From: a bacterium
GTDB lineage: Bacteria; SZUA-182; DTGQ01; JAFGSM01
Direction of reading: 5' to 3'
Assembly (NCBI GenBank): GCA_016934595.1
Contig: JAFGSM010000080.1
Span: 1,000 to 64,999, forward strand
DNA: 64,000 nucleotides
The notes below the pieces were generated by a model. The model ran no database searches and was not told where the DNA came from. It worked only from the letters and a program-made list of their open reading frames with translations. Positions 1-52,050 of this stretch are shown here, in pieces. The number at the start of each line of letters is the position of its first letter. Position 1 is the stretch's first letter. Position numbers and translations under genes: made by a program.

Positions 1-560
1 AGGAATTCCTCCAGGCTTATCGAGGTTTTTTGGGCGAGTGGATGGCTCGCATTCAAAGCAAGGGCCATAACATCCTCTATAAAATCGAAATATAAAAGTT
101 GATCTTCGTTGATCTTGCTGCCTATAACGCCCAAATCAAGGCCTCCATCTATAACCTCCTGTGCTATAGACAGGGTATCACCTATGCTGGAAAAAATCTT
201 TACACACGGGTTTTCTTTGCAGAATCTTTGAATAAAGGGCAAAAGGATATATGCCCCGGGGATATTACTTGAGCCCAGTTTAATTTCTCCCTTCCTGATC
301 CCCAGTATATCATTGATTGCCAGCCTCGCCTTTTTTTCGGATTCAACCATTATCCCTGCGTGCTGTAAAAGGATTTCTCCCGCCTTTGTCAAGACAATCC
401 TTTTGCCGAGACGGTCAAACAGTTTTGTTCCCAATTCCTTTTCCAATGCAATGATCTGGCAGCTTACTGAGGGCTGGCTTAGGTGAACTGCATTGGCCGC
501 CATGGAAAAGCTCTCCATCTCTGCGATCTTTATAAAACTTCTTAATTGTTCCAATGTCAT
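1..560 (-). CDS. LysR-family transcriptional regulator (partial; runs off window start)
   Basis: My translation of the reverse complement from the ATG at 560 gives MTLEQLRSFIKIAEMESFSMAANAVHLSQPSVSCQIIALEKELGTKLFDRLGKRIVLTKAG..., a typical LysR N-terminal wHTH followed by a substrate-binding domain. No stop codon before position 1, so the six-frame track does not list it. Confidence 0.7.
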   Translation of the reverse strand, partial: MTLEQLRSFIKIAEMESFSMAANAVHLSQPSVSCQIIALEKELGTKLFDRLGKRIVLTKAGEILLQHAGIMVESEKKARLAINDILGIRKGEIKLGSSNIPGAYILLPFIQRFCKENPCVKIFSSIGDTLSIAQEVIDGGLDLGVIGSKINEDQLLYFDFIEDVMALALNASHPLAQKTSISLEEF

Positions 561-575
561 ATATTCTTATCAATG

Positions 576-1451
576 TCACTTTATATCAGCCCAGGCATTT
601 TTTGTCTTTTCAATGGCCTCAGGCAAATATTTTATGATTTCCGAAATCTGTGTGGCAGGATTGGGATTAGCCAGCTTTCCAGCCCAGCGGTTGGCTTTTG
701 AGGCAAATGAGCAGGCTTCAACAATATTCATGCCCTTGTATATGAGGGCGGCGGCTATGCCCGTAATGGTGTCGCCTGTCCCGCCAATAGCCTCCAATAC
801 CTCCACAGAGGGGTCATCTACCTTCTCAACAATGGACCCATTGCAGCACACATAGTCTGTGCATCCCTTGACACATAAATATTTTGCCGAATTATTATAC
901 TTATAAGCCCTCTCTATCAGGGCAGCGGCCTCCCCCTCCAGGTGGCATATAAAACCCCTGGTGTAGGCAGGGTGGGAAGCCTTATCGTCAGCCAAAAACG
1001 CCAGTTCTCCAAGGTCAGGTGTAAAAAGGTCGTAAAGGGAGGCTTGTCCGGCAGCTTTGGCCACATACATTGATCCTGCGTCTGCTATCAGGCAAGGGAT
1101 TGGGTCAAGCCTTTGAATGACTGCCATAAGCCTTTTGTGATATTGAATGTTCGGCATAAGGTAATGAAGGACAAGCGTCTTTACCCTGTTTTTCTGAACA
1201 AACGCCTGTATTCCCTCGTATATATTGGCTCCACTTGTTTTTTGTCCTATATCGCCTGCCATTATAACATAGGGTGGGTCCAGATTAAAATACCGGCATG
1301 CTGCTGCAGCCGCCCCCACAAGGGAGGCTGTGCCACGAGTTAAAGGCAAATTCATTGCGTTTATCCTGATAATACCCTTTTCGCCAAAGTCTGCCCTCCC
1401 TGCTATGATCTCTCCAACATTACTTGGCACTGTGCCGGCAAGAAGAAGCAT
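576..1451 (-). CDS. YjeF C-terminal / NnrD-like carbohydrate-kinase-fold protein (ADP-dependent NAD(P)H-hydrate dehydratase family)
   Basis: Motifs LIADAGSM, FTPDLGELAFL, CVKGCTDYV and AIGGTGDTITG line up with the VlDADAL / LTPHpGE / vLKGsgT / GGsGDVLtG pattern of the YjeF_C/NnrD family. It is the last gene of the YeeE-TusA-DUF3343 operon. Confidence 0.5.
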   Translation of the reverse strand: MLLLAGTVPSNVGEIIAGRADFGEKGIIRINAMNLPLTRGTASLVGAAAAACRYFNLDPPYVIMAGDIGQKTSGANIYEGIQAFVQKNRVKTLVLHYLMPNIQYHKRLMAVIQRLDPIPCLIADAGSMYVAKAAGQASLYDLFTPDLGELAFLADDKASHPAYTRGFICHLEGEAAALIERAYKYNNSAKYLCVKGCTDYVCCNGSIVEKVDDPSVEVLEAIGGTGDTITGIAAALIYKGMNIVEACSFASKANRWAGKLANPNPATQISEIIKYLPEAIEKTKNAWADIK

Positions 1452-1454
1452 AAA

Positions 1455-2003
1455 TTAGGCCTCCGCTCCGCCCAGGAGATGTCTTATCTCTTCATAGGCC
1501 ACATTTAATGTGTAAGCGCAGAGGCTAAAACCGATCTGCGCTGGCCCTTCGCATTCATTAAGGGTTTTTCCTATCATCCGGTCAGCAAGATATGGGACAT
1601 CCGGACAACCACCTCCGGATATATTGACTATCTTCAGATTCCCTTTTTCAACGGTTATCTTCATGTTTGCTGCACGCACCATAAGATAACCGCCGAAGTC
1701 TTTTACCCTGCATAATTCCAGAGGGGACGTCGTTTCGTCCGACACAGGAACGATATTGAGCGGAGGGTTCCCGGATTCTTCAAGCTCCCTTGTCATAACA
1801 GTCTGCTCAATCAGATCGAAGGCCACGACAAGGTCGCACCCTGTCCTTATATGCGGAGGAGGCGCCATCAGGCGCACCTTAAAGCCGGCCTTTTTCAGTG
1901 TCTTCTCTGCCCTTATGGCCTGGCCTGCCTCCTGAAAAACAAAAAGCCCCCGTGCCTCTTCTCCTTTAGAATCAACCTTTTTCTTTAGAATATCTTTTAG
2001 CAT
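1455..2003 (-). CDS. DUF3343 (Pfam 'putative Se/S carrier protein-like') domain protein
   Basis: The N-terminal half (FVFQEAGQAIRAEKTLKKAGFKVRLMAPPPHIRTGCDLVVAF) matches the DUF3343 fold with its conserved Cys. The C-terminal half is uncharacterised and carries a GGGC motif. Only a 3-bp gap separates it from the downstream gene. Confidence 0.5.
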   Translation of the reverse strand: MLKDILKKKVDSKGEEARGLFVFQEAGQAIRAEKTLKKAGFKVRLMAPPPHIRTGCDLVVAFDLIEQTVMTRELEESGNPPLNIVPVSDETTSPLELCRVKDFGGYLMVRAANMKITVEKGNLKIVNISGGGCPDVPYLADRMIGKTLNECEGPAQIGFSLCAYTLNVAYEEIRHLLGGAEA

Positions 2004-2126
2004 GAAAAACCCGTGCCTTCATCTTTAAAATCCTGGGTTCCGGCTTTCGCCGGAATGACAGGAAAGGTTATTTTCATCTCCCTTTGTGAATCGGAGATTC
2101 ATGGGCGTTTCAAGAAAATCTACTTT

Positions 2127-2339
2127 CTACTTTTTAAGGGTAAGGATGAATTCGTCCCCCTCCTCTTTACATTCAATCTTCCATCCTTCATGTTCAGCCA
2201 ATCTGGAGATGTTGTCCCTCGAAGTGCCTGTGTCGACAATCACCTCAAATGTCCCCCTTCCCAATTCCTTCATCTTGTTCCTTGTCAAAACAACCGGTTG
2301 CGGGCAGGACAATCCCCTTGCATCAACTTTGTTAATCAT
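2127..2339 (-). CDS. TusA-like sulfurtransferase (CPxP motif)
   Basis: A 70-aa protein with the canonical N-terminal RGLSCPQPVV motif of the TusA/SirA family. The RBS aaaggagg sits just upstream of the ATG on the minus strand. Confidence 0.8.
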   Translation of the reverse strand: MINKVDARGLSCPQPVVLTRNKMKELGRGTFEVIVDTGTSRDNISRLAEHEGWKIECKEEGDEFILTLKK

Positions 2340-2450
2340 TATGTTTCCTCCTTTTTGTGGTTCCGGCTAGAGCCGTTAATTTCTTTGTAACCCCCATGAC
2401 CTTGCAGTCACAACGAAGCATAAAGTGGTGAACTATTACAATTTTTTAAT

Positions 2451-3521
2451 TCAAGCGGTTTGCCTCATGCCAAAGCCAATGCCTAAACAAACTATAATCC
2501 CTATTATTACAGATGCAGGGCCCCATACGGACGGACCTGTGGGGGCGCTTGCCATCGCAAAATTATGTGCAAAAGCGGCTCCGGCCAGCATCCCGAGTAC
2601 AAATATGGCTGCATCTCCATCCCCCTCGCCTGACATGAACAACTGCCTTCCAGGGCACCCCCCCGCAAGCGCAAATGCAAGGCCGGCCAGCACCATGCCT
2701 CCGAAATTCCATAAATGGTTGCTATGGGCTATTGGCTGGCCTGTTATTCCAGGTTGGAACTGCCTGAAAACAAGATTTGTAATAAAAGCTCCGGCTATCA
2801 AGGCAATAACCCCGGAAATAAGATGCGTGTCGCGAATCAGTATAATATCCCTGAATGCGCCCATTGTGCAAAACCTGGTCCTCTGTGCCAGGAATCCTAT
2901 GATTATGGCAATGCTAAGGGATATAAGAACAGGGGCATATTGCGCCCCTGGACCGCTTTCACTGAAAAAAAGGCCGCCTGTAGGGAGCTTTGGCCGGAAA
3001 AGAAGGAGGAGAAGGAATGCAATCATGGTGACAGGAAACAGCAGCCCTGCGAATGTGTTTGACTTATGGTTCCGGCCCAGACTATACCCCGATTTTATAA
3101 AAAGGACGCCGATCCATACCCCAACAACAAGACCCAATATCCCTAAAATGGCATTGCCATCCCCGCCAGCGAGCCTGAGCATGGCGCGCCATGGGCATCC
3201 AAGGAAAACAAGCGACCCTGTCATGGCAAAAAAGCCCAAGATAAACCTTGCGATGGGGGAAGATCCTCCTCTGGGCTTATATTCTTTAAAAAGCAATGCG
3301 GCGATAAATGCCCCAAGCACAAAACCGATGATCTCAGGCCTCATGTATTGCACAACCGCCGCACGGTGAAAACCCAGTGCCCCTGCAATATCCCTTTCCA
3401 TACAGGCCACGCATATCCCCATATTTTTGGGGTTTCCCAGCCTTTGTAAGATGGAGGCAAAGACGCCTATGATTGATCCCACAATGACAATGCCCTTCCT
3501 GGTTGTAAAGAATTTTGACAT
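2451..3521 (-). CDS. YeeE/YedE-family membrane transporter (thiosulfate/sulfur- or selenium-compound uptake)
   Basis: A 356-aa polytopic membrane protein with two repeated halves and conserved Cys-containing motifs (CVACMERDIAGALG and ALAGGCPGRQLF) typical of YeeE/YedE. It is immediately followed by a TusA-like gene, as in the known yeeE-yeeD pairs. Confidence 0.75.
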   Translation of the reverse strand: MSKFFTTRKGIVIVGSIIGVFASILQRLGNPKNMGICVACMERDIAGALGFHRAAVVQYMRPEIIGFVLGAFIAALLFKEYKPRGGSSPIARFILGFFAMTGSLVFLGCPWRAMLRLAGGDGNAILGILGLVVGVWIGVLFIKSGYSLGRNHKSNTFAGLLFPVTMIAFLLLLLFRPKLPTGGLFFSESGPGAQYAPVLISLSIAIIIGFLAQRTRFCTMGAFRDIILIRDTHLISGVIALIAGAFITNLVFRQFQPGITGQPIAHSNHLWNFGGMVLAGLAFALAGGCPGRQLFMSGEGDGDAAIFVLGMLAGAAFAHNFAMASAPTGPSVWGPASVIIGIIVCLGIGFGMRQTA

Positions 3522-3806: not shown

Positions 3807-5870
3807 ATGATTTATATCCAGAACATCAAAAAACATTTCGGGCACAAAACCATATTCGATAGCGCTTCAGCCCATATACCCCCTAAGACTAGAGTTGGCC
3901 TGGTGGGACCCAATGGCTCTGGGAAAACTACGCTCCTTCGGATCTTAACCGGTGAAGAGGAACTGGATGGCGGCGGTATCTTTATAAATAAAGGAGCCCG
4001 GGCCGGTTATCTCAAACAGGAGGTATGGGATAATCCAGACCGCGGCATTTTGGCAGAGACGCTGTCGGGTTTTCCTGATCTTCAAAAGATTGAACAGGGC
4101 CTGATAGAACTGGAACGGCAGATGGAGGGCAAATTTCTGCCTGACACCCTTGAAAAATATGGAGAGTTGCGTCATCTTTTTGAGATACAAGGCGGTTACG
4201 ATATAGAACATCAGGCCAAGTCATTGCTTTGCGGCATGGGTTTCCGTCCGGAGCAATTCGCTCAGCCCCTGCACCAGTTCTCAGGCGGTTGGATGATGCG
4301 CGTCTGTCTCGCTAAATTACTATTGGCCAAGCCCGATGTGCTTTTGCTGGATGAGCCAACGAACCATCTTGACCTGGAGACTATATTATGGCTTGAAAAT
4401 TTTTTGCTTGAATATCCTGGCACCATCGTGTTCACAACACACGACCAGGTATTTATGCAGAATGTGGCAGGGCGTATTCTGGAAATCAGCCGGTGCAAGT
4501 TGTTTACATTTATAGGAAGCTTCGAGGAATATGTGGAGGAAAAGGCTTCCAGGCAGGAACAGATCGAGGCCCAGTATAAAAACCAGCAGAAAAAGGTCGA
4601 ACAGCAGGAGCGTTTTATTGAGCGCTTCCGGTACAAGGCCACCAAGGCAAAGCAGGTGCAAAGCCGTATCAAAATGCTTCAGAAAAAGGAACGGGTGGAT
4701 ATGATAGAAGACACCCCGCGTGCGATGAAGATTCGCCTGCCCCAACCACCCCGGTCAGGTCAAAAGGTGGTGCATGTCTCAAATGTTACAAAAAAATACG
4801 GCGAGAAGACGGTCTATGAAGGGCTAAACCTTATCATCGAACGGGGTGAGAAGGCGGTGCTGGTTGGGCCGAACGGTGCAGGCAAATCTACACTCCTCAA
4901 GATTATAGCCGGAGTAATAGACATCCAGGCTGGAACCGTATCTTATGGCCACCAGGTCACAATGGATTACTACGCCCAGCATCAGCTCGAAACCCTGAAT
5001 CCGGATTTCAGCATACTGGAGGAATTGACGGCTGTGACACAGGACTTCACTCTTGAGAAACGCCGAAAACTATTAGGGGCATTCCTGTTCTCAGGCGAAG
5101 ATGTTTTTAAGCGCATCTCCATTTTGTCCGGCGGCGAAAAGGCACGAATCGCCCTGGTTAAAATGCTATGCCGGCCAATGAATTTCCTGGTCATGGATGA
5201 GCCTACCAATCACCTGGATATCCTTTCTCGTCAGGTACTTGAGGATGCGCTGTCAGACTATGATGGAACACTTGTTTTTATCTCCCATGACAGGGCATTT
5301 ATCAATTCCTTCGCAAACCGTGTTATCGAGATCAGGGATGGCAAACTGCACAGCTATCCAGGAAATTACGATGACTATGAATGGAAAAAAGCCCAGGAAA
5401 AACCACAAACACCTCTTGATCAAAAAATAAAAAACCGGCTGTCACCCGAATGCGTGGCCCCGGATATTCACGGCTCAAATTCTAATGAAAAGCCCATGAA
5501 TCTTAGATTCACAAAGGGGAATGAAAATATACAGAAGGGATTTTCAGATAAAAAAATCCCGGGCAAAAAAGACGGGCGTCGCGTGCGAGCCGAAAGGATA
5601 CAGGAAAAATCCAGGCGTCTAAAACCGCTTAAGGAGAAACTGGCTATTCTGGAAAAAGATATAGCAGCCCTGGAAGCAGAAAAAGAGGTAATCTCATCGG
5701 CAATATGCGACCCTAATATCATAAGCGATACTTCAGTCTATCCGCAAAAACTCAAAAGACACCGTGTCCTTGAGACAAGACTCCAAATATATTATGACGA
5801 ATGGGCAGAAACTTCCCAGCAGATAGAGGAAACCCTTTCAGAGTTTTCAGAGTTACAACCGGGTGATTAA
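3807..5870 (+). CDS. ABC-F family ATPase (EttA/Uup/YheS-like, two ABC domains) with an extended C-terminal tail
   Basis: Two Walker A motifs ([18 protein letters not shown]), two ABC signature motifs ([19 protein letters not shown]) and no TMDs. The C-terminal roughly 150 aa is a coiled-coil tail that contains an in-frame copy of the dispersed repeat (aa ...[23 protein letters not shown]...). Confidence 0.85.
5496..5560 (+). repeat. One unit of the dispersed structured repeat family, inserted in-frame in the ABC-F tail
   Basis: ATGAATCTTAGATTCACAAAGGGGAATGAAAATATACAGAAGGGATTTTCAGATAAAAAAAT matches the units at 58878, 14803 and 8911. It contains two palindromes: TGAATCTtAGATTCA and GAAAATatacagaagggATTTTC. 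Confidence 0.7.
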
Positions 5871-8910: not shown

Positions 8911-8990
8911 TCAATGAAACACTCATGCCTAAATTCGACACAAAGGAGAATGAAAATCCAAAACTATTTTCAGGTGAAAATCAGCGCAGA
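8911..8990 (+). repeat. One unit of the dispersed structured repeat family (intergenic)
   Basis: AATGAAACACTCATGCCTAAATTCGACACAAAGGAGAATGAAAATCCAAAACTATTTTCAGGTGAAAA is nearly identical to one unit (rc) inside the ydbH-like gene at about 14880-14935. It is open-reading-frame-like (MPKFDTKENENPKLFSGENQRRKIEIPK*). Confidence 0.7.
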
Positions 8991-9246: not shown

Positions 9247-9269
9247 TAATTATTTCCTTAATTAACAAT

Positions 9270-9424: not shown

Positions 9425-11080
9425 ATGAAATTTAAGGGGGGAAATATGCATAAAAGATATCTATATAATAATAAACGCCCATGTCACCTTATATCGCCAC
9501 AAATAATGAGAATAAACAACGAGATTTATTTTAGGAACAAATATCCATGGCACTTTGGAGCCGCCACGAATCATGAAAATCGAACCTATTTTCGAGACAA
9601 ACGCTCATGCCGCTTCGCTGCGCCACGAATCATGAAAATAAACAACGATGTTTATTTTCGAGACAACAAGAATAAAAACCCTTTGTCCTCGATGTGCCTT
9701 TCTGTAATGATTGTAATGATGATGATAATATTGCCTTGTCTCATTTCTGGCCATGCTATAGCAGACGAAAACAGTGCATTCCCGTTCTATCCATCTTTAA
9801 TCATTCCGGCAGCAGACGGGGGAATAGGTCTGGATGCCTTTAAGGCCGCTATGTCCTGCAGAGGATGTCACCTTTCTACCTTCAAGGAATGGGAGGGATC
9901 AACACACTCCCTTGCCTTTAAAGACCCTGTATTTCTTTCGATGTGCAGATTAGGTTCCAAAGCAACAAACGGACAAACGGACAAATTGTGTCTTGGATGC
10001 CATACACCCATAGGGCTTATTACATCCGATATAACAACCCCTGATGATGAAACTAAGGCAAATCAAATCTCCAAAGATGGCGTTCAGTGCGATTTTTGCC
10101 ATGTCGTAAGCAATACGACCTATAACAAAGCCAAGACCGCTTCCCCCCAGAATGCGTCATTCCTTGTCCAGCCAGGGGAAATTAAATGGGGGCCGATAGA
10201 CAATTGTGAATCCACATTCCACAAATCGGAATTTTCCGAGCTTCATACCAGTTCCAAGTTTTGTGGCAACTGCCACAATATCTTCTTGACAGGCCAGGAT
10301 ATCAAGATTGTAAAGACCTACGACGAATGGGAAAAATCCGTTTACGCCCAGAAAGGTATAGAGTGCCAGGACTGCCATATGATGCCTGTTGAATTGGCAA
10401 AAATAGCGGCAGACAAACTGGAAAAACCTAAAAATTCCGGTAAGGCCGCATCCGTTGCGCCCTTGAGAGAAAATATACATGTGCACAGGTTTGTCGGCGG
10501 AGGATTCGATCTGGAAAAAGGCCCACGCGTAACTAATCAGCAGAAAGAGACGGAAAAAAGGCTAAAAAGCGCGGCAAGACTGGATATCGATGTTAAGCCC
10601 TCCCCTTCCTCAAAAGGCAGCCTGGTCTTAACGGTAACCGTACACAATGAAAGGGCGGGCCATAATCTGCCTACAGGGATCCCTGGCATAAGGCAGTTAT
10701 GGCTTGAGGTAATCATCTCAGACAAAGGCTCAAAAGAGGTGTTTCGTTCAGGCGGCCTGGATAAAGACGGAAATATCCAAAAAGACGCAAAGCGCCTTGG
10801 TGTTGCAGCCGTTGACAAATCAGGCGACCCTGTATATAAACCCTGGGAAATTGCGGCATTAAAGACAGATACAACCATCCCTCCGAAGGGAAAAGGGGGG
10901 TTCAAATTCGACGTAAGCCTTCCCGATGACATTGCGTGGCCGATGACTGCGAAAGCCATTCTTCACTACAGGGCATTCAGTCCATCATTGCTTAAGGATC
11001 TTTTGCCGGATGCCCCTCGTGAGATACCTGTCTTTGACATGGCAACATCAGAGATCGCCATACAAGGCCCTGTTCTCTGA
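9425..11080 (+). CDS. Multiheme c-type cytochrome (five CxxCH motifs), secreted
   Basis: CRGCH, CLGCH, CDFCH, CGNCH and CQDCH are present. A signal-peptide-like segment MCLSVMIVMMMIILPCLISGHAIA sits at about aa 90, which suggests the real start is near 9692. The first roughly 270 nt of the listed ORF are the tandem repeat units. Confidence 0.8.
   Translation: MKFKGGNMHKRYLYNNKRPCHLISPQIMRINNEIYFRNKYPWHFGAATNHENRTYFRDKRSCRFAAPRIMKINNDVYFRDNKNKNPLSSMCLSVMIVMMMIILPCLISGHAIADENSAFPFYPSLIIPAADGGIGLDAFKAAMSCRGCHLSTFKEWEGSTHSLAFKDPVFLSMCRLGSKATNGQTDKLCLGCHTPIGLITSDITTPDDETKANQISKDGVQCDFCHVVSNTTYNKAKTASPQNASFLVQPGEIKWGPIDNCESTFHKSEFSELHTSSKFCGNCHNIFLTGQDIKIVKTYDEWEKSVYAQKGIECQDCHMMPVELAKIAADKLEKPKNSGKAASVAPLRENIHVHRFVGGGFDLEKGPRVTNQQKETEKRLKSAARLDIDVKPSPSSKGSLVLTVTVHNERAGHNLPTGIPGIRQLWLEVIISDKGSKEVFRSGGLDKDGNIQKDAKRLGVAAVDKSGDPVYKPWEIAALKTDTTIPPKGKGGFKFDVSLPDDIAWPMTAKAILHYRAFSPSLLKDLLPDAPREIPVFDMATSEIAIQGPVL
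9473..9664 (+). repeat. Three tandem units (66, 60 and 66 bp) of the dispersed structured repeat family, immediately upstream of or inside the 5' end of the multiheme cytochrome ORF
   Basis: The three units are at 9473-9538, 9539-9598 and 9599-9664. Each contains CCACgAAtcATGAgAAT-loop-ATTTTcGAG-type hairpins (for example GAAAATAAACAacgaTGTTTATTTTC, an 11-bp perfect stem). All three are in-frame with the cytochrome ORF (…RFAAPRIMKINNDVYFRD…). Confidence 0.7.
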
Positions 11081-13740: not shown

Positions 13741-15192
13741 CTAATTGACCTTTACTGCCGTACCCCTGTCCTCGAAAATCCTGTTGATCCTTTCCCTCAT
13801 ATCCTTAAAGCTTATTATGTTATCAGGGTTCTGATTGACCATATCGATCCCGCGGAAAAGCCCTTTTCTTATAATAAACTCCTGGCCGTCCTCCTGAATA
13901 AGCCCCCTCAGTGAAAAGATATCGTTTCTTAGCTCGCACCTGAACCCTATTTTTGAGTATGGATAATAGGAAAAAAATCTGTTTAATCCGGAATTAAGAA
14001 CACTCTGAACACCGGAAGACCCTGTGCCGATCATGGAGAGGTTATTAATGGCATCCACGCTGATCTTCTGCCTTACCCCTTTCTGTTTAACCGATTCCAC
14101 CTCCATCAAAAACCTTGCAGGCTGACCATATTCTATCACAAAATCGGTCAACTTTCCTTTGATAACACCGCTGATCTTGCCGATGGGAACCCTTTCTGTC
14201 AGCTTATCAAGCCCTATGCCATCCCAAAAGATAGACCCGCCCAGCCTTCTCCCCTGGCTGAAGGGCATCTCAAGATAAATATCCTTGATATCTAAACCTC
14301 CTCCGAATATTTCAGCATAAAGCGAGCCTGTAAAATCGATCCTGTCATTCTTATATGTCAGATGAGGTATATCTCCATCCAATCGCCCGGATACAGGAAA
14401 ACCTGATCCCTTTGAAATCGTCATCAGATCCAATGCCTTAATGCCTATGGATGCCTGGAAAACAGCGTTTTTGGAGATTATCTCCGCGCCGCTCAGCTCC
14501 CTCAAAAAGACTTCCCCACCGAAGATATTTATATAGACAGGGTCCTTTATCTGGAAACGGTTTTGAGAAAACATGGGATGCAGCTCCAAGTCATCATAAA
14601 ATCCATTTAGCCAGGAAACCTTCTTGATACGGATGACCCCTGAACGTCCATCTGTGAATGGCCCCTGTTCACAGAATGAAGACGCTGCAAGTTCTAAAGG
14701 CAATTCTATAGTCAGTCCAGAGATGGAGATTTCACAGGCAGGTATATCTATTGATGGAAAAGATGCCTTCCATTCGCCGCTAAGCCTCCAACCGCCACTT
14801 TCATCTGAAAATCCCTTCTGGGTATTTTCATTCCCCATTGTGAATCTAAAATTCATGGGCGTTTCACCTGAAAATAGTTTTGGATTTTCATTCTCCTTTG
14901 TGCCGAATTTAGGCATGAGTGTTTCATCTATCATCGCCCTTAGTTTAAAAACAGAGCATCCCGATATATTAATCCCCTGTAAAGCAGGCGGTCCCTGTTC
15001 ATTGCCTTCCGCGATGATAAAACCGAGGAGAGCGGAATGGTTGATGCCAGACGTCTTTGTCTCTAAATCAAGAGACAATCCCTTTTGATCCATTTTTATC
15101 TGAAACCGCAGGCCCCCGATCTCTAAAATATCCAGAACCCCTTTAGACTCTAAACGCTGAAAGTTTGCAAAAAAAAACCGCTTAAATCCCAC
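13741..15192 (-). CDS. YdbH/AsmA-family protein, C-terminal fragment (same gene as 15150..16550 after a +1T correction)
   Basis: Inserting one T in the T9 run (plus-strand A9 at about 15170-15178) joins ...WDLSGFF to FANFQRLESKG... in one frame, giving about 940 aa, comparable to E. coli YdbH. It contains two in-frame repeat units (...MPKFGTKENENPKLFSGETPMNFRFTMGNENTQKGFSDE...). Confidence 0.6.
   Translation of the reverse strand: MGFKRFFFANFQRLESKGVLDILEIGGLRFQIKMDQKGLSLDLETKTSGINHSALLGFIIAEGNEQGPPALQGINISGCSVFKLRAMIDETLMPKFGTKENENPKLFSGETPMNFRFTMGNENTQKGFSDESGGWRLSGEWKASFPSIDIPACEISISGLTIELPLELAASSFCEQGPFTDGRSGVIRIKKVSWLNGFYDDLELHPMFSQNRFQIKDPVYINIFGGEVFLRELSGAEIISKNAVFQASIGIKALDLMTISKGSGFPVSGRLDGDIPHLTYKNDRIDFTGSLYAEIFGGGLDIKDIYLEMPFSQGRRLGGSIFWDGIGLDKLTERVPIGKISGVIKGKLTDFVIEYGQPARFLMEVESVKQKGVRQKISVDAINNLSMIGTGSSGVQSVLNSGLNRFFSYYPYSKIGFRCELRNDIFSLRGLIQEDGQEFIIRKGLFRGIDMVNQNPDNIISFKDMRERINRIFEDRGTAVKVN
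14803..14935 (-). repeat. Two tandem units of the dispersed structured repeat family, in-frame inside the ydbH-like gene
   Basis: The reverse complement reads ...TGAAACACTCATGCCTAAATTCGGCACAAAGGAGAATGAAAATCCAAAACTATTTTCAGGTGAAACGCCCATGAATTTTAGATTCACAATGGGGAATGAAAATACCCAGAAGGGATTTTCAGATGAAA... One unit is nearly identical to the intergenic copy at 8911-8990. Confidence 0.7.
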
Positions 15193-16550
15193 GAAACAGA
15201 GCGCCCGGACAAGTCTTTATATATTGTACCCCAAAGATATTCGCCGTTTTTAATATCTCCATGAGTTCTGAATGTAACCTTGTCATCCGTCGTCTGGGGC
15301 TGGGGATAAACCAGGTCCAGGTTAACATTCAGTTCGATCCCCTCGCCCGCCTTTGTGCCGTCATTGGAACTGAACCCTCCATCCTTTACCTTAATCTCCA
15401 GCCCCCCTTCGAATGTCCATTTCTCCTGCATCCTCATCCCTGTGAGTTGGACGCTGGCATCCCCTCTTCCCTTTACATCCCAAAGATTATTACCTTGGTC
15501 CAAAAACGGACCTATTATTTCAGTCAATCCTGTGATAAAAAAATCCCTTGTAAAAAGCGCAGCCCTGCTGGAACACCCCTCCTTAAAACAAACATCCATA
15601 TGCCCATCAATAACACCCATCTCCGGCGCTTCTGCCTTAAAACCTCTTATGCTCAAGGCCCCCCTTTGCAAATCATATACAATATCCGCATGGATATTAA
15701 TGCCTTTAAGCGCAGGGATATTACCCCCGTCGATCTGAATGCCATTTAACCCCATGTTCACGTCTGGAAGACTTATCTTCTGCGCATCGATAAAGACTCC
15801 GCAATCAAGGCGCATACCCTCTATTGATACGCCTTTTATTGTAATGCCAGAAAGGGATAAGGAAAAGTGCCCGCTGCCTGATAAAACCTGCGAAAGGGGT
15901 GCAAGATTGAGTGTCAACTCTATCTGCCCGGACGTACAGGATAAAAGCGAGGGAGGACATACCTGTAATGCCCCTTTTAAAAAGACCCTGCCCCCTGTGT
16001 CAGCGCCCATATCCCGAACCTCAACAACGGCGTCTTTCAGCTCCAAGATGCCCAGACTGTCGGAAATCTTGATGGAAAAGGCCCCGCCCTTTATATCCAT
16101 CTTCCTTATATACGGCATCTTTCTAATAATATCCTGCAAACGAGAAAAAGCCTGATTGGCATCTAAATGCCCATCACCGGAGGATCTGTCTTTTGAAGAT
16201 TTATTTTTTACAGCATCAGGCATTACATCCAATGCTATATCAGGCTTATAAAATACAAGGTCTACAATCTCGGGCCTGAAGCCGCTTCCGATCCTGCCGT
16301 CAAAGTTAACCGTCTCCACCTCTGCCCTTGCAGAGAGGCCGTCATCCCTCTTTATGGAAAGGCGTTCTATGTTCCCTTCCAATCCGGGTCTTAACGCAAA
16401 ACCTTTCGCATTCAGGGAAATACCGTATTTCAAACGCAGAACATATCCAAGGATATTGACAGGGATGGGGGTAAAGAAAAAAAGGGACACGCAAGCACAA
16501 AAAACTGCGGATAAAAAAATGGCTGTTATTACTATCTTTCTTTTATGCAT
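15150..16550 (-). CDS. YdbH/AsmA-family protein, N-terminal fragment (frameshifted; continues in 13741..15192)
   Basis: An N-terminal signal anchor is followed by long beta-rich repetitive sequence typical of AsmA-like/TamB-like lipid-transfer proteins. Its stop overlaps the next ORF at a T9 homopolymer. Confidence 0.6.
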   Translation of the reverse strand: MHKRKIVITAIFLSAVFCACVSLFFFTPIPVNILGYVLRLKYGISLNAKGFALRPGLEGNIERLSIKRDDGLSARAEVETVNFDGRIGSGFRPEIVDLVFYKPDIALDVMPDAVKNKSSKDRSSGDGHLDANQAFSRLQDIIRKMPYIRKMDIKGGAFSIKISDSLGILELKDAVVEVRDMGADTGGRVFLKGALQVCPPSLLSCTSGQIELTLNLAPLSQVLSGSGHFSLSLSGITIKGVSIEGMRLDCGVFIDAQKISLPDVNMGLNGIQIDGGNIPALKGINIHADIVYDLQRGALSIRGFKAEAPEMGVIDGHMDVCFKEGCSSRAALFTRDFFITGLTEIIGPFLDQGNNLWDVKGRGDASVQLTGMRMQEKWTFEGGLEIKVKDGGFSSNDGTKAGEGIELNVNLDLVYPQPQTTDDKVTFRTHGDIKNGEYLWGTIYKDLSGRSVSWDLSGFFLQTFSV

Positions 16551-23149: not shown

Positions 23150-24127
23150 TCATGAAACCAGATGACAGGCGACCTGGTGGCCGTCTTTCACCTCTTTCAT
23201 AACCGGCTCCTCTATTGAACATATCGGCATTTTTTGAGAACATCTCGTATGAAAACGGCAACCATCCGGAGGATTTACAGGAGAAGGCATATCCCCCTTC
23301 AGGATAATCCTGCCGGATTTGACGTCAGGATCAGGGATCGGCACGGCCGATATCAGACTCATGGTATAAGGATGTAAAGGTGAATCAAAGATCTTATCCA
23401 CACCGGCTTTTTCAACCAGTTTCCCTAGATACATCACTGCCACATAATCACTGATGTAGCGAATCAGGCTCAGATCGTGGGTTATAAACAGGTAGCTTAA
23501 TCCAAACTCCTTTTGAAGATCAAGAAACAGATTAATCACTTGCGCCCTGACAGAAACGTCCAGGGCAGACACGGGCTCGTCCGCCACAATCAATTCCGGA
23601 TCCACGCTCAGCGCTCTTGCAATGCCGATCCTCTGCCTTTGCCCGCCGCTAAACTCATGAGGATACCTCTTCATTAAATCTGAGGAAAGCCCGACCTTCT
23701 CCAGAAGAAAGGCCACCTTTTTTCTCCTCTCATCCTTGCTTAGGCAAATCCTGTTAACAATTAAGGGTTCTCCTATGATAGACTCGACGCTCATCCTTGG
23801 ATTCAGGGATGCATAGGGATCCTGAAATACTATCTGGAGCTTTCTCCTTGCTGCCCTCATACTATCGGAATCAAAAGCGAGCAGGTCATCGCCCTTGAAA
23901 AAGACATGACCTGACGTAGGCTCAACGAGCCTTATAATCCCGCGCGCAACGGTGGATTTCCCGCATCCGCTCTCCCCGACAAGCCCCAATGTTGAGCCTT
24001 TAGGAACAGAAAAACTCACTCCATCAACGGCCTTCAGCCTTTCTTTCACCCTGGAAAAGATTCCCCCCCTTATTGGGAAGTGCTTGACAAGGGCCTCTAC
24101 ACGAAGCAATTCCATGTTCCCGTTCAA
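23150..24127 (-). CDS. Oligopeptide/dipeptide ABC transporter ATP-binding protein (OppF/DppF-like)
   Basis: Walker [10 protein letters not shown], signature [12 protein letters not shown], Walker B LIVADEP, plus the C-terminal oligopeptide-transporter Cys-rich extension ([14 protein letters not shown]). Confidence 0.85.
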
Positions 24128-25101
24128 GGTTTAGCCTCCCAGCAGCTTACAAGATGGCCCGGCCCGATCTCAACAAGCCTTGGCATATCTGTAATGCAAC
24201 GCTGCCTTGCCCGCTCGCATCTTGATGCAAAAGGGCACCCTATAGGCATGTCAAAGAGGTCGGGAACCGTGCCTTTGATCGTCTTCAGCCTGCCGCCCGC
24301 GATTTTCCTGTCATCAAGCCTCGGCAATGAATCAAGAAGCGCGATGGTATAAGGATGTAACGGGCCGTGAAAAAGATCCCTTACCCCCGCCTCTTCAACC
24401 ACATACCCTGCATACATAACCGAGACCTTCTGAGCAGTTTCCGCAACCACGCCGAGGTCATGAGTAACCATGAGAACAGACATACCCAAGCTGTTTTTCA
24501 GGCTGTCTATAAGCTCAAGTATCTGGGCCTGTATAGTAACATCCAGTGCCGAAGTGGGTTCATCTGCGATCAAGAGATCAGGCTGGCATGAAAGGGCCAT
24601 GGCTATCATCACCCTTTGCCTCATACCCCCGCTCATCTGATGGGGATAATCCTTGATCCTTTTTGAAGGATCTGGAATGCCAACCATGTCTAAGATCTCG
24701 ACAGACCTTTGGACCGCCTTTTTGTGGTCAACCCTTTGATGCAGGCGGATAGCTTCGGCTATCTGTTCTCCGACAGTGAAGACCGGATTCAAAGATGTCA
24801 TAGGTTCCTGAAAGATCATGGATGTTTCGTTTCCCCTGATATCGCGCATCTCATCCGGATCGAGACCGAGCAGGTCCCTGCCGTTAAAAGTGATCCTGCC
24901 TGACATAATCCTGCCCGGCGGGTTTGGGACAAGCCTCATGATTGAAAGGGAAAGCACTGTTTTACCGCATCCGGACTCTCCAACCAAACCCAGCGTTTCG
25001 CCTTTTTTTATCTTAAGGTCAACCCCGTTCACAGCCTTTACAACCCCGTCAGAGGTAAAGAAAAAGGTGTGCAGGTCTTCGACAGCAAGCAGGTACTTCA
25101 T
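24124..25101 (-). CDS. Oligopeptide/dipeptide ABC transporter ATP-binding protein (OppD/DppD-like)
   Basis: Walker [10 protein letters not shown], signature [12 protein letters not shown], Walker [13 protein letters not shown], and the C-terminal [14 protein letters not shown] motif. Confidence 0.85.
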
Positions 25102-25161
25102 CTGAAAATCCCTTTCATGTGTTTTTCATCCCTGTTTGCAGATAGAAAATTAATAAGGGTC

Positions 25162-26769
25162 TCATCTCACCCATACACTGTCCAGAAAAAGATCGCCAAG
25201 AGAATTCGTGAAATCGCCTTTGACCCAGCTTCTGGCTGCCCATATCCTGTGAGGATAACAAAGATAAATGGCCACCACTGCCTTATCGATCACGGGGGAC
25301 AGGATGCTGAATGACATATCCCTGACATTGGGATCACACTCCTTGAGAGCCGATGAAAGGTCTTCTTCCCATGTATATGTAGATGCCCCCAGCTTGTTCT
25401 CTAAAGATGAATGGTGATAAAGCCGCCATGTGAATTGATCCGCCCCTCCACCTCCCCTCCAGTCCTCCCAGTCCTCGAGCGCCGCCTGAAAAAAAGCCCT
25501 GTCTTTCCCGCCCCGTCCATACACAAAGTCAAAAAGCTCATTTTTAGACATGGGAAATAAGTCCACAAGGACATTGATATGTGAGAGTTGTTCCTTGATG
25601 ATTTGGGCAATTGCACGGAAAGGCTCATCATCCGTATACATAAGGGAAAAAGAAACCTGCAAATCTGAGGTAAAACCCTCATCCGCAAGCAACTTTAACG
25701 CAAGATTCGGGTCAAAAAACTGCCCGCCGGCGCCTGCGTCATAAAGCCTGTGCCACTGAGGGAGACAAGACAGCGCAGGGGTTGCAAAACCGTCAAATGC
25801 CTTCTTTGCTATCTCCTCCCTGTTTATGCCCAATGAAATGGCCTTCCTGATGTTTGGCCTGTCAAATGGGGACCGGTCTGCATTGAGGTATATCTGGCAT
25901 ATTCTCTGTCCAGGCTTATGAACAAGCCGGATGTATGATCTTGAGGCAAGCCCGGATGCCTCGTTTGTGGAAAGATTTGCAGCGATATCTATCCTTCTTC
26001 GTCTGAGGTCTTGAACCACATCGCTGCCAGGCTCTGGAAAATGGAATATTATCCTGTGGAGAAAGGGATTGTTGGCCTTGTCTGTCTTATATGAATAGTT
26101 TCTTTCAAGGATTACATCCTTTCCCCTTTCCCATTCAATAAATCTGAAAGGGCCTGTGCCAACGGCTGCAACCTTGCCGTAAGAAGACCCATACCGGGTC
26201 ACAGCCTTAATGGAAAGGGGGCGCATCTCATGCCTGGCAAGCAATTCCAAAAGATCAGGGCAATCATGACCTAAAGTGATCTTTATCTGCATCGGAGCAA
26301 TTACCTCAACAGAGTTAATGCCTTGAAATATTTGTCGTGAAGGGCATTGAGTGGCCGGATCAAGCAGCCTCTTTATGGTAAATACAACGTCATTGGCATC
26401 AAGCGGCTTCCCATCATGAAACTTTATATCATGCTTAATCTCGAGTATATATTCATGATCGCTTATTCTCACAGGCATGGATGCTGCAAGCACTGGAACT
26501 ATTCTGTCGTTTTGGTCGTACTCAAGGAGGCCGTCATAAATTTGTTCTATTAACCATTTATCGGACAGGGTTTCCGCCTTTTGAGGGTCTAGTGTATAAA
26601 CATGATCAGGACATGCTAGGACAAGCGCGCCCCCCTCGTGTATTTTGACTTTGTGCGGCTCTTGATGGGTTTTCTCTGGGTAGACAGATAATCCAGCGCC
26701 TATCGTAAGGGAAAATATTACAGATGCTAAAAATACCGTCCTCAAACTAAAAACAAACGGATTCCTCAT
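25162..26769 (-). CDS. ABC transporter substrate-binding protein, family 5 (peptide/nickel/opine type)
   Basis: A signal peptide plus about 510 aa with the SBP_bac_5 pattern (…YTLDPQKA…, …GTGPFRF…). It is followed directly by the two ATPase genes, but no permease genes are adjacent. Confidence 0.75.
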   Translation of the reverse strand: MRNPFVFSLRTVFLASVIFSLTIGAGLSVYPEKTHQEPHKVKIHEGGALVLACPDHVYTLDPQKAETLSDKWLIEQIYDGLLEYDQNDRIVPVLAASMPVRISDHEYILEIKHDIKFHDGKPLDANDVVFTIKRLLDPATQCPSRQIFQGINSVEVIAPMQIKITLGHDCPDLLELLARHEMRPLSIKAVTRYGSSYGKVAAVGTGPFRFIEWERGKDVILERNYSYKTDKANNPFLHRIIFHFPEPGSDVVQDLRRRRIDIAANLSTNEASGLASRSYIRLVHKPGQRICQIYLNADRSPFDRPNIRKAISLGINREEIAKKAFDGFATPALSCLPQWHRLYDAGAGGQFFDPNLALKLLADEGFTSDLQVSFSLMYTDDEPFRAIAQIIKEQLSHINVLVDLFPMSKNELFDFVYGRGGKDRAFFQAALEDWEDWRGGGGADQFTWRLYHHSSLENKLGASTYTWEEDLSSALKECDPNVRDMSFSILSPVIDKAVVAIYLCYPHRIWAARSWVKGDFTNSLGDLFLDSVWVR

Positions 26770-27210: not shown

Positions 27211-28019
27211 GAAACCTTGATCTTTTCCGTGAAAGGGCTTTCTGGAAACTCCCGGCAGAGGTATGCCTGAACGCCCCTCGCCTCGTCTAACATGCCCTCC
27301 ATCATGTATGTCTGGGAAAGCAGATAAAGGGTCTCATCCCTCCACGGGACTTCAGGATAAAGCGACCATATCTTCTGAAGCCTGCCTCTTGCCGCCTTGT
27401 ACGAGCCGGTCTTCAGGTAAAACCTGGCCACATAGAGGTCATGCTCAGAAAGCCTCAAACGGCATTTGGATACACTATCCTTTGCCTCTTCTGTCATCTG
27501 GCTCTGCGGATATTCCTTGAGGAATCTCTCGAATGATTCCAGAGCCTTGATCGTATAAGTCTGATCCCGATCCGGCCCCAATATTTGCTTAAAAAATGTC
27601 TGCCCTATCCTGAACCTAGCCATGTCAGCCTTTGAATGGAGGGGGTGAAGATTAAGGAATCTCTCGTATTCCGCCCTTGCAGAATCAAATTCTTTGAGTT
27701 GAAAATAACAATCGGCCCTGTTCAGTCTGGTCTTGGCCATCAAAGGGCTCTCAGGATACTCCTCTGTCAGCCTGCCAAAGACCTCCTCCGCCTTCCGGAA
27801 TTTGTCCTTGCCCAGATAATCCATGGCCTGATTATATAGCTCCTGATCCGTAAGCACTCTTGCCTTTTTGCTGCAAGAAGGCAAGGCTGGGGACATGATG
27901 ACAAGGAGGCAGATAACCCATAGAGAAAATATGGTACGTCCTTTTTTATTTTCAATAAATATTTTCGTCTGAAAATCGTTTATGATTTTCATCCTCCTTT
28001 GTGCCAATTTTATTGGCAT
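27186..28019 (-). CDS. bamD: Outer-membrane protein assembly factor BamD-like TPR lipoprotein
   Basis: Lipobox ALPSC after a signal peptide, then TPR repeats with BamD-like motifs (YNQAMDYLGKDKFRKAEEVF..., ...YVARFYLKTGSYKAARGRLQ...). The true start is probably an internal Met. Confidence 0.65.
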   Translation of the reverse strand: MPIKLAQRRMKIINDFQTKIFIENKKGRTIFSLWVICLLVIMSPALPSCSKKARVLTDQELYNQAMDYLGKDKFRKAEEVFGRLTEEYPESPLMAKTRLNRADCYFQLKEFDSARAEYERFLNLHPLHSKADMARFRIGQTFFKQILGPDRDQTYTIKALESFERFLKEYPQSQMTEEAKDSVSKCRLRLSEHDLYVARFYLKTGSYKAARGRLQKIWSLYPEVPWRDETLYLLSQTYMMEGMLDEARGVQAYLCREFPESPFTEKIKVSCKDIEPE

Positions 28020-28091
28020 GGTTGTTTCATTATAATTTGTAAAGGTAAATTAAAAATCCATTAAATAGTTTTGCCGAAAGATTGTCGCTTG

Positions 28092-49692: not shown

Positions 49693-49726
49693 ACCCTCAT
49701 GAACAAAAGTTGTTCGCACCAGAGGA

Positions 49727-49762
49727 TGAAAATGTATTTTCATGGTAAAAGGCGTGGTTCAA
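49727..49762. promoter_or_regulatory. Short member of the structured repeat family, placed as a bidirectional terminator-like hairpin between convergent genes
   Basis: CACCAGAGGATGAAAATgtATTTTCATGGTAAAAGG contains an 8-bp perfect palindrome (ATGAAAAT/ATTTTCAT). It shares the CAC.A..GG.ATGAAAAT-ATTTTCA.G..AAAA frame of the repeat family. Confidence 0.45.
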
Positions 49763-51767: not shown

Positions 51768-51993
51768 TAACTTGTCCTCTTATCTTTATAAATCGGCTTT
51801 TTGCCCGTTGATGAACTAAAATCAGGATAATATGACATATAACTTTTTCTATTTGACATTATGGATAGACAAAACTATACTGTCAAATGGAATAAGTGTT
51901 TTCATTTAAAGCGACCCTGTTGTTTTTTGTTTTCAAAAATATCTCATTAAACATCCAAGACTATAAATATTTAAAATAGTCATAAACAAGCAC

Positions 51994-52038
51994 GAAAATA
52001 GATTTGATGCTGTTCTGGACAGGATCAAATCTATTTTC
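51994..52038. promoter_or_regulatory. 15-bp perfect inverted repeat (GAAAATAGATTTGAT-15nt-ATCAAATCTATTTTC) with a palindromic loop, 13 nt upstream of the HIT gene start
   Basis: Read directly. The loop GCTGTTCTGGACAGG is itself palindromic (CTGTTC/GGACAG). The flanks (CAC..., ...AAATTAAAA) resemble the dispersed repeat family frame. Confidence 0.4.
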
Positions 52039-52050
52039 AAATTAAAAAAT

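Follow-up and report, generated by a model that had tools for sequence, protein, structure and literature searches.

A dispersed family of two-hairpin repeat units at gene boundaries and within genes of a bacterial contig

A 64-kb stretch of contig JAFGSM010000080.1 (hereafter the window, meaning the whole stretch analysed) contains a dispersed family of short repeat units, each with two hairpins. The family is real: repeat finding, nhmmer searches and a covariance model (CM) placed at least 15 units at 12 loci of the window (Table 1). Most copies lie at gene boundaries, that is, at start codons, stop codons and operon junctions, and three of the 12 window loci are intragenic. Alignment with orthologues shows the copies at five loci to be insertions: those in the ABC-F, YdbH-like and multihaem cytochrome genes, at the start of bamD, and between the genes of a solute-binding protein (SBP) and an OppD-like ATPase. 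We consider it probable that the units are small, non-autonomous and modular, that they are inserted at sites resembling their own junctions, and that they are tolerated by translation.

Detection of the repeat family

The covariance model was built from 33 diverse copies and run on the window without filters. It returned 11 units with E < 1e-4, six on the plus strand and five on the minus strand, plus two weaker ones (51943-52049, E 0.007; 9467-9544, E 0.12). The unit at 49685 was missed by nhmmer alone and found by the model. We counted four occurrences of the core pattern ATGAAAAT-N6-13-ATTTTCAGRTGAA in the window, against none in 100 dinucleotide-preserving shuffles. TRF reported a tandem pair at 58875-59034 with a period of 77 nt, made up of 63-nt cores and a 14-nt spacer. 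Head-to-tail arrays of two to three units occur at 9467-9670, 14796-14930 and 58877-59029.

A preliminary description of this DNA had proposed a dispersed, structured repeat family with at least seven loci. Three methods and the covariation of the hairpins bear out the family, and all five full loci of that list were recovered by three independent methods, at the same positions or a few bases off. Direct reading of the DNA there found one and the same unit, ~70 nt long, at each position. The count itself was too low, with loci at 2014-2122, 25093-25168 and 27960-28033, all on the minus strand, as additions (2066-2119, 25097-25164 and 27961-28012 in repeat finding). Two further copies had been described as truncated hairpins. 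The one at 49727-49762 makes up hairpin 2 of a unit that is complete (49685-49752; 44 bits, E 3e-8), while the one at 51994-52038 belongs to a weak, degenerate member of the family (51943-52049, E 0.007).

Copies are insertions relative to orthologues

The ABC-F protein of the window has 687 aa, against 652-657 aa in its homologues, and its approximately 32 extra residues include a 24-residue unit. They fall in a variable linker between the second ABC_tran domain, which Pfam ends near aa 500, and the C-terminal coiled-coil domain (CTD; 609-668). The YdbH-like protein displays some 41-44 extra residues amid conserved blocks, with the predicted peptide ETLMPKFGTKENENPK, and seven of eight homologues lack them. 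At the DNA level, a syntenic relative (L129) reads ...TTGATAGATGATAATGGGGGTTGG at this site, where the window reads ...ATGATAGATGAAAC, two units and then CAGATGAAAGTGGCGGTTGG. The direct repeat AGATGAAA stands on both sides of the unit pair, and L129 has ATAGATGATAAT there once.

PGAP places the start of the cytochrome coding sequence (CDS) at 9446, after a strong Shine-Dalgarno (SD) sequence (SD and ATG, 9434-9448), with the three-unit array included in the CDS. The best of 4110 cytochrome homologues (447-474 aa) align from query residue 79-89 onward, which is the signal peptide (ATG 9692). Residues 10-74 correspond exactly to the 195-nt array and have no counterpart among the 4110 homologues. 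The predicted peptide of the extension is HKRYLYNNKRPCHLISPQIMR. The array is stop-free in the cytochrome frame only, and by our own estimate from base composition a stop-free run over 65 AT-rich codons has a chance below 1%, which argues for real translation through the array.

The bamD gene contains an insertion of approximately 118 nt (27978-28095) relative to two syntenic orthologues, L124 and L125, in which trpA, a small lipoprotein gene, bamD, a 146-aa open reading frame (ORF) and the SBP gene follow one another. These orthologues read ATGCTTATG-GATTGCGAAATAAAG and ATGCCTGCG-GATTTCGAGATAAAG, and the window has the extra stretch between ATGCTTGCG and GATTTTCAGACGAAA. Reading from the ancestral BamD ATG now meets a TAA, and the annotated start (ATG 27992) is supplied by the 5' arm of hairpin 2, with AAGGAGG ahead of it. 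At the SBP/OppD junction, the two genes of the orthologue L127 overlap by just the 4 nt ATGA, and the window has ~64-66 nt more, equal to one unit, with ATGA at both ends. The TGA of the upstream gene overlaps the 5' ATG of the unit, and the 3' ATG of the unit is the ATPase start annotated by PGAP (25101). The covariance model found no unit in the orthologous contigs of the bamD and SBP/OppD comparisons.

The three in-frame placements of the preliminary description (ABC-F, ydbH-like and cytochrome genes) hold: all are stop-free, and the orthologues are without them. The comparison of ABC-F and ydbH-like genes that it had proposed as a check likewise found the inserts absent from homologues. 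Two comparisons yielded no empty sites. The contig carrying an ABC-F homologue (L128) has no synteny with the window, so it offers none for 2014-2122, and between the window and the DNA of the related metagenome-assembled genome (MAG) JBLIRP01 the repeats alone align.

BamD (27992) and the multihaem cytochrome (9632), two unrelated secreted proteins, have a common element-encoded N-terminal sequence, MKI(I/N)ND(F/V), which derives from hairpin 2 (ATGAAAATNANAAACGAT) and lies in frame before both signal peptides. A small conserved lipoprotein-like ORF (28090-28234, minus strand) stands between trpA and bamD. In the orthologues (L124, ~340-470) some 25 nt of it overlap with the bamD start, and the insertion in the window parts the two genes. 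The YdbH/AsmA-like gene, a single ORF of ~839 aa in more distant homologues, is split in the window (13741-16550, minus strand) into two ORFs in different frames, 15150..16550 and 13741..15192, which overlap by 43 nt. In L129, the nearest relative, it is split alike (143..1528 and 1501..2817); thus, the split is a conserved arrangement or a programmed frameshift and not a sequencing error.

Unit architecture

In sense orientation the units follow the consensus RTGAAAC-N3-CATG-(hairpin 1)-CACAAAGGRG-N-ATGAAAAT-(loop of 8-13 nt)-ATTTTCAG-RTGAAA, with a length of 60-66 nt and a GC content of 31-40%. The stems of hairpin 1 differ by subfamily (GAATCT/AGATTC, GAGCC/GGCTC and TGCCGA/TCGGCA, with long GC stems in copies from Firmicutes and Elusimicrobia), although the pairing is kept. 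In alignment A4, pairing holds in 91% of cells, versus 82% after shuffling and at most 57% with the partner slid. Compensatory (double) changes affect four of the six hairpin-1 pairs, and the covariation score (0.225 versus 0.09) was equalled in none of 500 shuffles. Hairpin 2 (ATGAAAAT-loop-ATTTTCA) has an invariant lower stem, UGAAAAU/AUUUUCA. Its upper stem and loop are variable and mostly end in a purine tract (GGGG, GGAG or GGAGG).

An SD-like tract sits immediately 5' of ATTTTCAG, 8 nt ahead of the 3' RTG, in 54 of 63 units, and each unit holds three to four RTGA motifs. The stop-free frame of 60- and 63-nt units is xAT-GAA-A, the one used in ABC-F and YdbH; the remaining two are closed by RTGA, save in subfamilies without CATGA. 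Hairpin-2 loops of 8, 11, 12 or 13 nt shift the frame. Successive units meet at ATTTTCAG-RTGAAA, a junction with the core ATTTTCAGRTGAAA and a small palindrome, TTTTCA-GR-TGAAAA.

Several properties had been ascribed to the family before, and the architecture does not agree with most of them. A single open frame is contradicted by the cytochrome array, which has ATG-AAA in phase (units 1 and 3), as against xAT-GAA-A in ABC-F and YdbH. A length divisible by three is not intrinsic, since 64-nt units are common in JBLIRP01, where 13 units have 60 nt, 12 have 63 nt and eight have 64 nt. The peptide consensus varies by subfamily (NLRF, SLRL, PKFG, PIKLA), and what is conserved is the hairpin; we rejected a conserved peptide because frames and hairpin-1 translations differ. 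Intergenic copies do run from ATG to a stop, as had been noted, which follows automatically from the repeated RTGA motif.

We also rejected membership in a known RNA family. Rfam 15 gave the tRNA alone at gathering thresholds, and under permissive thresholds no hit in 58850-59060 had an E value below 0.2. A role as intrinsic terminator or small RNA had been suggested for the hairpins. It is unlikely: no U-tract follows either hairpin, a scan of 8500-9800, a stretch with the 8911-8982 unit and the 9467-9670 array, flagged just a hairpin at 9002-9021, outside the units, and at the copy between convergent genes the overlap is with a stop codon.

Gene boundaries and translation signals

Of the 12 window loci, 11 point in the same direction as the gene that they touch or precede; the exception, 8911-8982, adjoins no co-oriented gene. 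Among same-direction gene pairs of the related MAGs, about 10 copies are co-oriented and three to four anti-oriented, according to crude ORF calls. Copies pile up at gene starts because ATG-AAA is a common gene start.

We examined 52 units of the KSB1-like set (window, JBLIRP01 and JBLIRN01). In seven of them an ORF of 200 codons or more begins at the 3' RTG (for the bamD unit at 27960, an ACG). Elsewhere the 3' RTG opens ORFs for a RimO/MiaB-like protein (440 codons, L002), a FabF-like protein (427, L053) and a nucleotidyltransferase (114, L101), as well as a 358-codon signal-peptide ORF (L107) and an HTH ORF on a viral contig (L123). At L062 the 3' ATG ORF runs for 15 codons to the contig end. 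At the other end of the unit, the upstream gene terminates on the 5' TGA or TAA at 25093, 49685 and L004. Unbroken chains of ATGA/GTGA overlaps lead from upstream stop to downstream start at 25093-25168, L107, L101, L062 and L033, and the internal ORFs of 64-nt units are likewise chained. Between these two routes of initiation, the SD-plus-RTG cassette is better supported than the relay.

Target sites and recent activity

The target resembled the unit-to-unit junction in every resolvable case. Targets were AGATGAAA in the YdbH-like gene, GATTTCGAGATAAAG or GATTGCGAAATAAAG in bamD orthologues where the window has GATTTTCAGACGAAA, and ATGA at SBP/OppD, with 4-15 nt shared between target and element. 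Metagenome contigs L107 and L111, which are 93-96% identical, form a filled/empty pair: L111 carries an extra hairpin-rich unit of ~155 nt at an existing junction of unit and gene start, flanked by the 13-nt direct repeat TATTTTCAGGTGA. The same composite occurs in another genomic context in L110, shared from AAGGAAATGAAAC to CAGGTGAAAAA, and its 3' GTG abuts a signal-peptide ORF. At L023 and L102, ATGAAAGGC flanks the element on either side, and the 5' copy is preceded by a native AGGAGG SD. Flanking repeats measure 12 nt at L049 and 8 nt at L055. All of the 8-13-nt direct repeats (L111, L023/L102, L049, L055 and YdbH) contain the RTGAAA core; many copies share just 6 nt. In three arrays the seventh base of the 5' RTGAAAN is not the usual C but G, G and T, and each time the 3' base is identical to it (p ~0.04), which is only suggestive of target-site duplication.

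Non-orthologous copies in JBLIRP01 and JBLIRN01 are 96.5% identical, compared with 92.4% for orthologous flanks. In the window, the units at 8911..8982 and 14862-14927 are 98% identical, with 5.9 kb separating them. Judged by these identities (the 98% pair 8914/14862 and the copies shared between MAGs), the family appears to have been active recently. Collectively, mobility is well supported. The pattern of insertion fits recombination in a short common core (circle by target) or insertion into specific targets with duplication, and does not match that of a transposon with terminal inverted repeats (TIRs), an attC site or an IS200/IS605 insertion.

The extra unit of the lake-sediment contigs (L111, 571-725; L110, ~116-290) has the family termini GTGATTAAAC ... 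CTATTTTCAG. Its interior differs and is much longer, with a near-perfect hairpin (AAATGACAAATG / CATTTGTCATTT). What defines the family may be its termini and not its interior.

Host, relatives and distribution

The host had been taken for a member of a Desulfobacterota-like lineage. Its ABC-F is closest to proteins of candidate division KSB1 (68-69% identity), and by this sequence the host is related to KSB1, not to Desulfobacterota. The window encodes housekeeping genes.

We scanned genomes by pattern search, with one genome per species, and copy numbers per genome are lower bounds. The scan found at least ~31 loci in JBLIRP01, at least four in JBLIRN01 and at least one in JBLIRO01, and the examined part of one MAG contained ~45 units. 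Among the matches listed, full-length members scoring at least 54 bits came from JALXFI01 (two copies), Elusimicrobia, Omnitrophota, a Desulfotomaculum MAG, Desulfallas and one unclassified bin. Ten further loci came from a metagenome scan with a different anchor, and a scan of viral contigs gave one clear member and no obvious parent element. Related copies span at least four to five phylum-level lineages among the matches listed, plus one viral contig.

Such a scan of relatives had been proposed together with a count of copies inside CDSs and of frame preservation. The family was found; essentially no copy in JBLIRP01 lies in a real CDS, and lengths are not always a multiple of three. With 64-nt units common and almost none in the CDSs of this relative, the in-frame copies of the window are survivors, namely insertions whose length was a multiple of three and whose phase was open.

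Elements in JBLIRP01 are mosaics of a truncated module, a run of AATGTAG heptads and a main unit, and every module starts with RTGAAAC. Two to six heptads (AATGTAG, AATGTCG or AATATCG, with a stop codon in each) lie directly 5' of most main units (L004-L097). Their copy number is variable, as at L007 (7400-7640) and L033 (4100-4350). At L051 (3940-4240, minus strand) a unit lies between two copies of a short repeat, GGACATGCTTT(C/T)(A/G)TTAATGAA, which points either to another family of repeats or to local duplication.

Proposed model and its weak points

We propose that new units enter genomic sequences resembling the ATTTTCAG-RTGAAA junction. ATG-AAA is a common start and TGA a common stop; because of this, units would accumulate at starts, stops and ATGA operon junctions. 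A unit would be translationally harmless through its SD-like tract 8 nt before the 3' RTG, its three to four RTGA stop/start motifs and, where its length is a multiple of three, its stop-free frame. A gene hit at its start could still be translated from the SD and start codon of the element, or by a relay of termination and reinitiation. A gene hit internally would survive if the insert is a multiple of three and in open phase. Mobilisation may proceed by site-specific recombination of a circular or single-stranded DNA (ssDNA) intermediate at the junction core. From sequence patterns we infer this chemistry, the use of the built-in translation signals, and a possible benefit to the host.

A number of observations weigh against this model. 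Neither in the window nor in the surroundings of the copies was a transposase, a recombinase or an autonomous parent element found, and on inspection the units have no TIRs. The invariance of the lower stem of hairpin 2 at external loci was partly forced by our search patterns. The 5' and 3' RTGAAA differ at positions 1 and 7 in most JBLIRP01 copies, and simple target-site duplication therefore cannot explain every copy. Approximately half of the copies at gene starts have a complete relay, a share that does not clearly exceed the chance expectation of 1 in 3, and for this reason we put forward its use only conditionally. Three to four JBLIRP01 copies are antisense to both neighbours by crude ORF calls. 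In the bamD insertion, the left junction lacks a copy of the core, and ~55 nt are not recognisable as unit sequence.

A bolder version of the model seems to us possible but doubtful. It would make the family a hitherto undescribed, cross-phylum class of mobile elements that home to start codons via the palindromic ATTTTCA-GR-TGAAA by site-specific recombination and carry a portable initiation region, which would keep the affected genes expressed, with some copies co-opted by the host and a putative recombinase moving a circular or hairpin ssDNA intermediate. If true, the essential bamD gene would depend on the SD and ATG of an element, and the multihaem cytochrome and ABC-F would carry element-encoded residues.

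These findings have implications beyond the window. The bamD locus is a concrete case in which the start codon and ribosome-binding site of an essential gene appear to have been replaced by repeat DNA. Gene starts and N-terminal extensions annotated in such genomes may be repeat-derived, as with the array that PGAP calls as cytochrome CDS. The conserved junction core offers a handle for finding the mobilising enzyme.

Alternative explanations

The units might instead be a cis-acting RNA that controls translation, with hairpin 2 presenting the SD by the start codon as a thermosensor or as a platform for CsrA-like, S1 or Csp-like proteins (ACAAGGA-type linker, GGA in the loop). They would then be multi-copy because they are useful, and mobility would be secondary. 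The compensatory changes in the hairpins agree with such a role, and so does the SD-like tract, which lies in the hairpin-2 loop or upper stem, 8 nt before RTG, in 54 of 63 units. Elements also stand exactly at gene starts in other phyla and on the viral contig, sense orientation is favoured by ~10 to 3-4 among same-direction gene pairs, and the core is conserved between MAGs whose genes no longer align as DNA. A parallel exists in the TAACTGA heptamers upstream of start codons (PMC4679880). Nevertheless, we regard this explanation as unlikely. The downstream genes are unrelated in function, and many copies are distant from starts, between convergent genes, upstream of a tRNA promoter or within CDSs. 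Tandem arrays and mosaics with heptad runs resemble proliferating DNA, orthologues work without the unit, and Rfam has no match.

It is improbable that the units belong to a REP/BIME-like system (repetitive extragenic palindromes and bacterial interspersed mosaic elements) or derive from IS200/IS605 in the manner of PATE elements, as ssDNA hairpins recognised by a HUH Y1 transposase (RAYT or TnpA) encoded elsewhere. Recognition of ssDNA would predict that hairpin structure is kept while sequence varies, as is the case here. The absence of TIRs, the insertion next to a short specific sequence, and the GTAG-containing heptads, (AATGTAG)n, directly 5' of many JBLIRP01 units point the same way. 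However, the two hairpins are dissimilar, the units are AT-rich rather than GC-rich palindromes, and the arrays are head to tail rather than inverted pairs. Unlike in IS200/IS605, target sequence stands on both sides of the insertions, and no Y1 transposase was seen in the examined part of one genome. Orientation tracks the local gene strand and not replication. Both strands are used within 0-30 kb, and we rejected a replication-strand bias of the IS200/IS605 type on this ground.

Selection for the encoded peptide, as a module like the Rickettsia palindromic elements (RPEs) or as a small secreted or leader peptide, is very hard to credit. Three in-frame placements in proteins, the element-derived N-terminus MKI(I/N)ND of two signal-peptide proteins, and the 195-nt array that is open in the ORF frame only would speak for it. 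Still, the hairpin-1 region translates differently in each subfamily with its pairing kept, frames differ between genes, variation in loop length shifts the frame (64-nt units being common), and most copies are non-coding. This heterogeneity of frame largely refutes the peptide reading.

Finally, the bamD GATTTTCAGACGAAA and the SBP/OppD ATGA are ancestral and common to orthologues, as expected of non-mobile remnants of local duplication or gene conversion, or of ancestral low-complexity sequence at gene ends, yet 12 dispersed loci on both strands, 98% identity between copies 5.9 kb apart, the same family in other MAGs, phyla and a viral contig, empty orthologous sites and filled/empty polymorphism essentially refute this least credible explanation.

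Individual loci and neighbouring features

Table 1. Loci and units of the repeat family in the window, with the interval of the covariance-model (CM) hit
Position	Strand	Description	Evidence	CM hit
2014..2122	-	Unit whose hairpin-2 loop has an extra insertion of ~38 nt bearing its own hairpin	CM 45.3 bits, E 1.4e-8; nhmmer; sequence	2014-2116
5482..5556	+	Single 63-nt unit, in frame within ABC-F gene 3807..5870	CM 76 bits; Pfam; orthologue alignment	5482-5556
8911..8982	+	Intergenic 60-nt unit	Repeat finding; CM	8911-8982
9467..9670	+	Three diverged units, CATG anchors 66 and 60 nt apart	Repeat finding; CM; homologues; PGAP	9593-9670; weaker, 9467-9544
14859..14930	-	First (5') of two units in YdbH-like ORF 13741..15192, in frame	Repeat finding; CM; protein and DNA alignment	14859-14930
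14796..14870	-	Second unit in the YdbH-like ORF; GTGAAAC common to both units	CM 81 bits; protein and DNA alignment	14796-14870
25093..25168	-	Unit filling the gap between the SBP gene (25162..26769) and the OppD-like ATPase gene (24124..25101)	CM 57 bits; PGAP; orthologue L127	25093-25168
27960..28033	-	Unit at the 5' end of bamD	CM 67 bits; PGAP; orthologues L124, L125	27960-28033
49685..49752	+	Complete unit between convergent genes	CM 44 bits, E 2.7e-8; sequence; Pfam	49685-49752
51943..52049	+	Weak degenerate member with long hairpin 51994-52038	CM 22 bits, E 0.007; sequence	51943-52049
58877..58951	+	Best-scoring unit, intergenic	CM 89 bits; TRF	58877-58951
58953..59029	+	Second, more degenerate unit, 77 nt downstream of the 58877 unit	CM 49.6 bits	58953-59029

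The unit at 2014..2122 lies ~10 nt upstream of the start of a DUF3343 gene (2003) and is preceded by two AAGTAGA heptads (2122-2135). The DUF3343 (Se/S carrier-like) gene adjoins a sulphur-transport gene (PF04143) in the region 1455-3521 (minus strand), and the gap of ~450 nt contains the unit with the expanded loop.

Downstream of the 8911..8982 unit are a promoter-like site (9031-9059) and a tRNA-Arg(CCG) gene (9173-9247). The promoter-like site is near consensus (TTGATA-17-TATAAT), and the units at 8911-8982 and 9467-9670, in the same orientation, bracket the tRNA gene. The 9467..9670 array represents a variant subfamily with the junction ATTTTCGAGACAAAC in place of ATTTTCAGRTGAAAC, also present in JBLIRP01. 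A 29-nt fragment at 8692-8720, 810 nt upstream of the array, resembles hairpin 2 of this subfamily (AAGAATCATAATAAACAACAAGATTTTTT) and is probably a decayed unit.

The unit between convergent genes accommodates the TAA stop of a LysM gene (48595..49692) within its 5' TTAAAC motif and ends 15 nt short of the stop of an HD-GYP gene (49767..51767). The degenerate member at 51943..52049 terminates in ATTTTCAAATTAAAAAAT, immediately 5' of the ATG of a HIT-family gene (52051). The best-scoring unit has divergent neighbours: a gene like those of class-I (W/Y-type) aminoacyl-tRNA synthetases (57774..58745, minus strand) and an RmlD-like gene (59133..60053, plus strand).

The window also contains other repeats. 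An 11-nt tandem repeat, ATAATCTTGGT, occurs in ~3-4 copies at 60082-60129, ~100 nt upstream of ispH (60236..61078). Another tandem repeat, of 12 nt (GCGCAATCAGCA; 2.8 copies, 95% match), lies at 48069-48101 within ORF 47766..48590. An inverted repeat with 33-nt arms 78 nt apart (63104-63247) is found just downstream of the ribosomal protein S1 gene (61156..63108).

Comparison with known repeat systems

Three classes of element were considered and rejected for the units. A MITE (miniature inverted-repeat transposable element) with TIRs does not match, since the 5' RTGAAACNC and the 3' ATTTTCAG-RTGAAA are direct and not inverted, and no parent insertion sequence was seen in the window. REP/BIME elements differ from units that are 31-40% GC and head to tail, with GTAG just in the heptad module of JBLIRP01. 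As for integron attC sites, GTGAAAC fits RYYYAAC at five of seven positions, and inspection of alignment A4 revealed no 3' GTTRRRY and no complementarity of the ends.

More generally, the REP/BIME, ERIC, BOX, Correia and MITE-like families share with the units a small, non-autonomous, structured and multi-copy nature, a location mostly in transcribed intergenic DNA, a mosaic or modular organisation (BIME, BOX) and occasional in-frame intragenic copies (PMC3184786, PMC10969869). The family described here has neither TIRs nor a GC-rich GTAG palindrome. Instead, its ends are RTGAAA direct repeats, and its insertion is tied to a junction-like core at starts and stops. Arrays of TAACTGA heptamers, a few bases upstream of the starts of unrelated genes, occur in Beggiatoaceae, cyanobacteria and Bacteroidetes with a patchy phyletic distribution that suggests horizontal spread (PMC4679880). 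The (AATGTAG)n module of JBLIRP01 looks analogous to them. Pure heptamer arrays are without the two-hairpin unit, however, and the window has just the two heptads at 2122-2135.

The preliminary description likened the family to RPEs, which are ~150 bp long, form ten families in Rickettsia only, are intragenic in about half of their copies and encode a conserved peptide per family (PMC10969869). The analogy is fair as regards in-frame insertion. Both are palindromic or hairpin repeat families found in frame and without disruption in unrelated housekeeping genes, at protein surface or linker regions, and in both the insertion is absent from orthologues. On the other hand, the units here are 60-66 nt long rather than 100-150 bp, have no conserved peptide, occur outside the Rickettsia lineage and lie predominantly at gene boundaries, a location more typical of mycobacterial interspersed repetitive units (MIRUs).

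By analogy, the closest counterpart is the MIRU rather than the RPE. MIRUs (Supply et al. 1997, summarised in PMC12548453) are short units in direct repeat, each tens of bases long and often grouped into small head-to-tail arrays. They occupy intergenic positions in operons and are oriented with the genes. At start codons they insert with a 4-nt ATGA coupling, their internal ORF being coupled to the gene at -4 nt spacing, and insertion is near neutral. The family of the window likewise displays short direct-repeat units in operon gaps, insertion at start codons with a 4-nt overlap, and co-orientation with genes. Its units differ in consisting of two covarying hairpins with their own SD-like tract; MIRUs are not known to have dyad symmetry. 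The units described here are also present in frame inside coding regions and form mosaics with runs of heptads. Their hosts belong to another lineage (KSB1-like MAGs and others), for which reason we do not claim membership of the mycobacterial family itself, and the two are not known to be related in sequence.

The units constitute a previously uncatalogued family with a MIRU-like mode of insertion and occasional RPE-like in-frame inserts. To what is described for MIRUs and RPEs it adds two covarying hairpins, an SD of its own, a defined core at the junction and occurrence across phyla. With it, the MIRU principle, of a selfish repeat that lands on start codons with translation kept, would reach far beyond mycobacteria and would be joined to RPE-type in-frame protein insertion in one element family.

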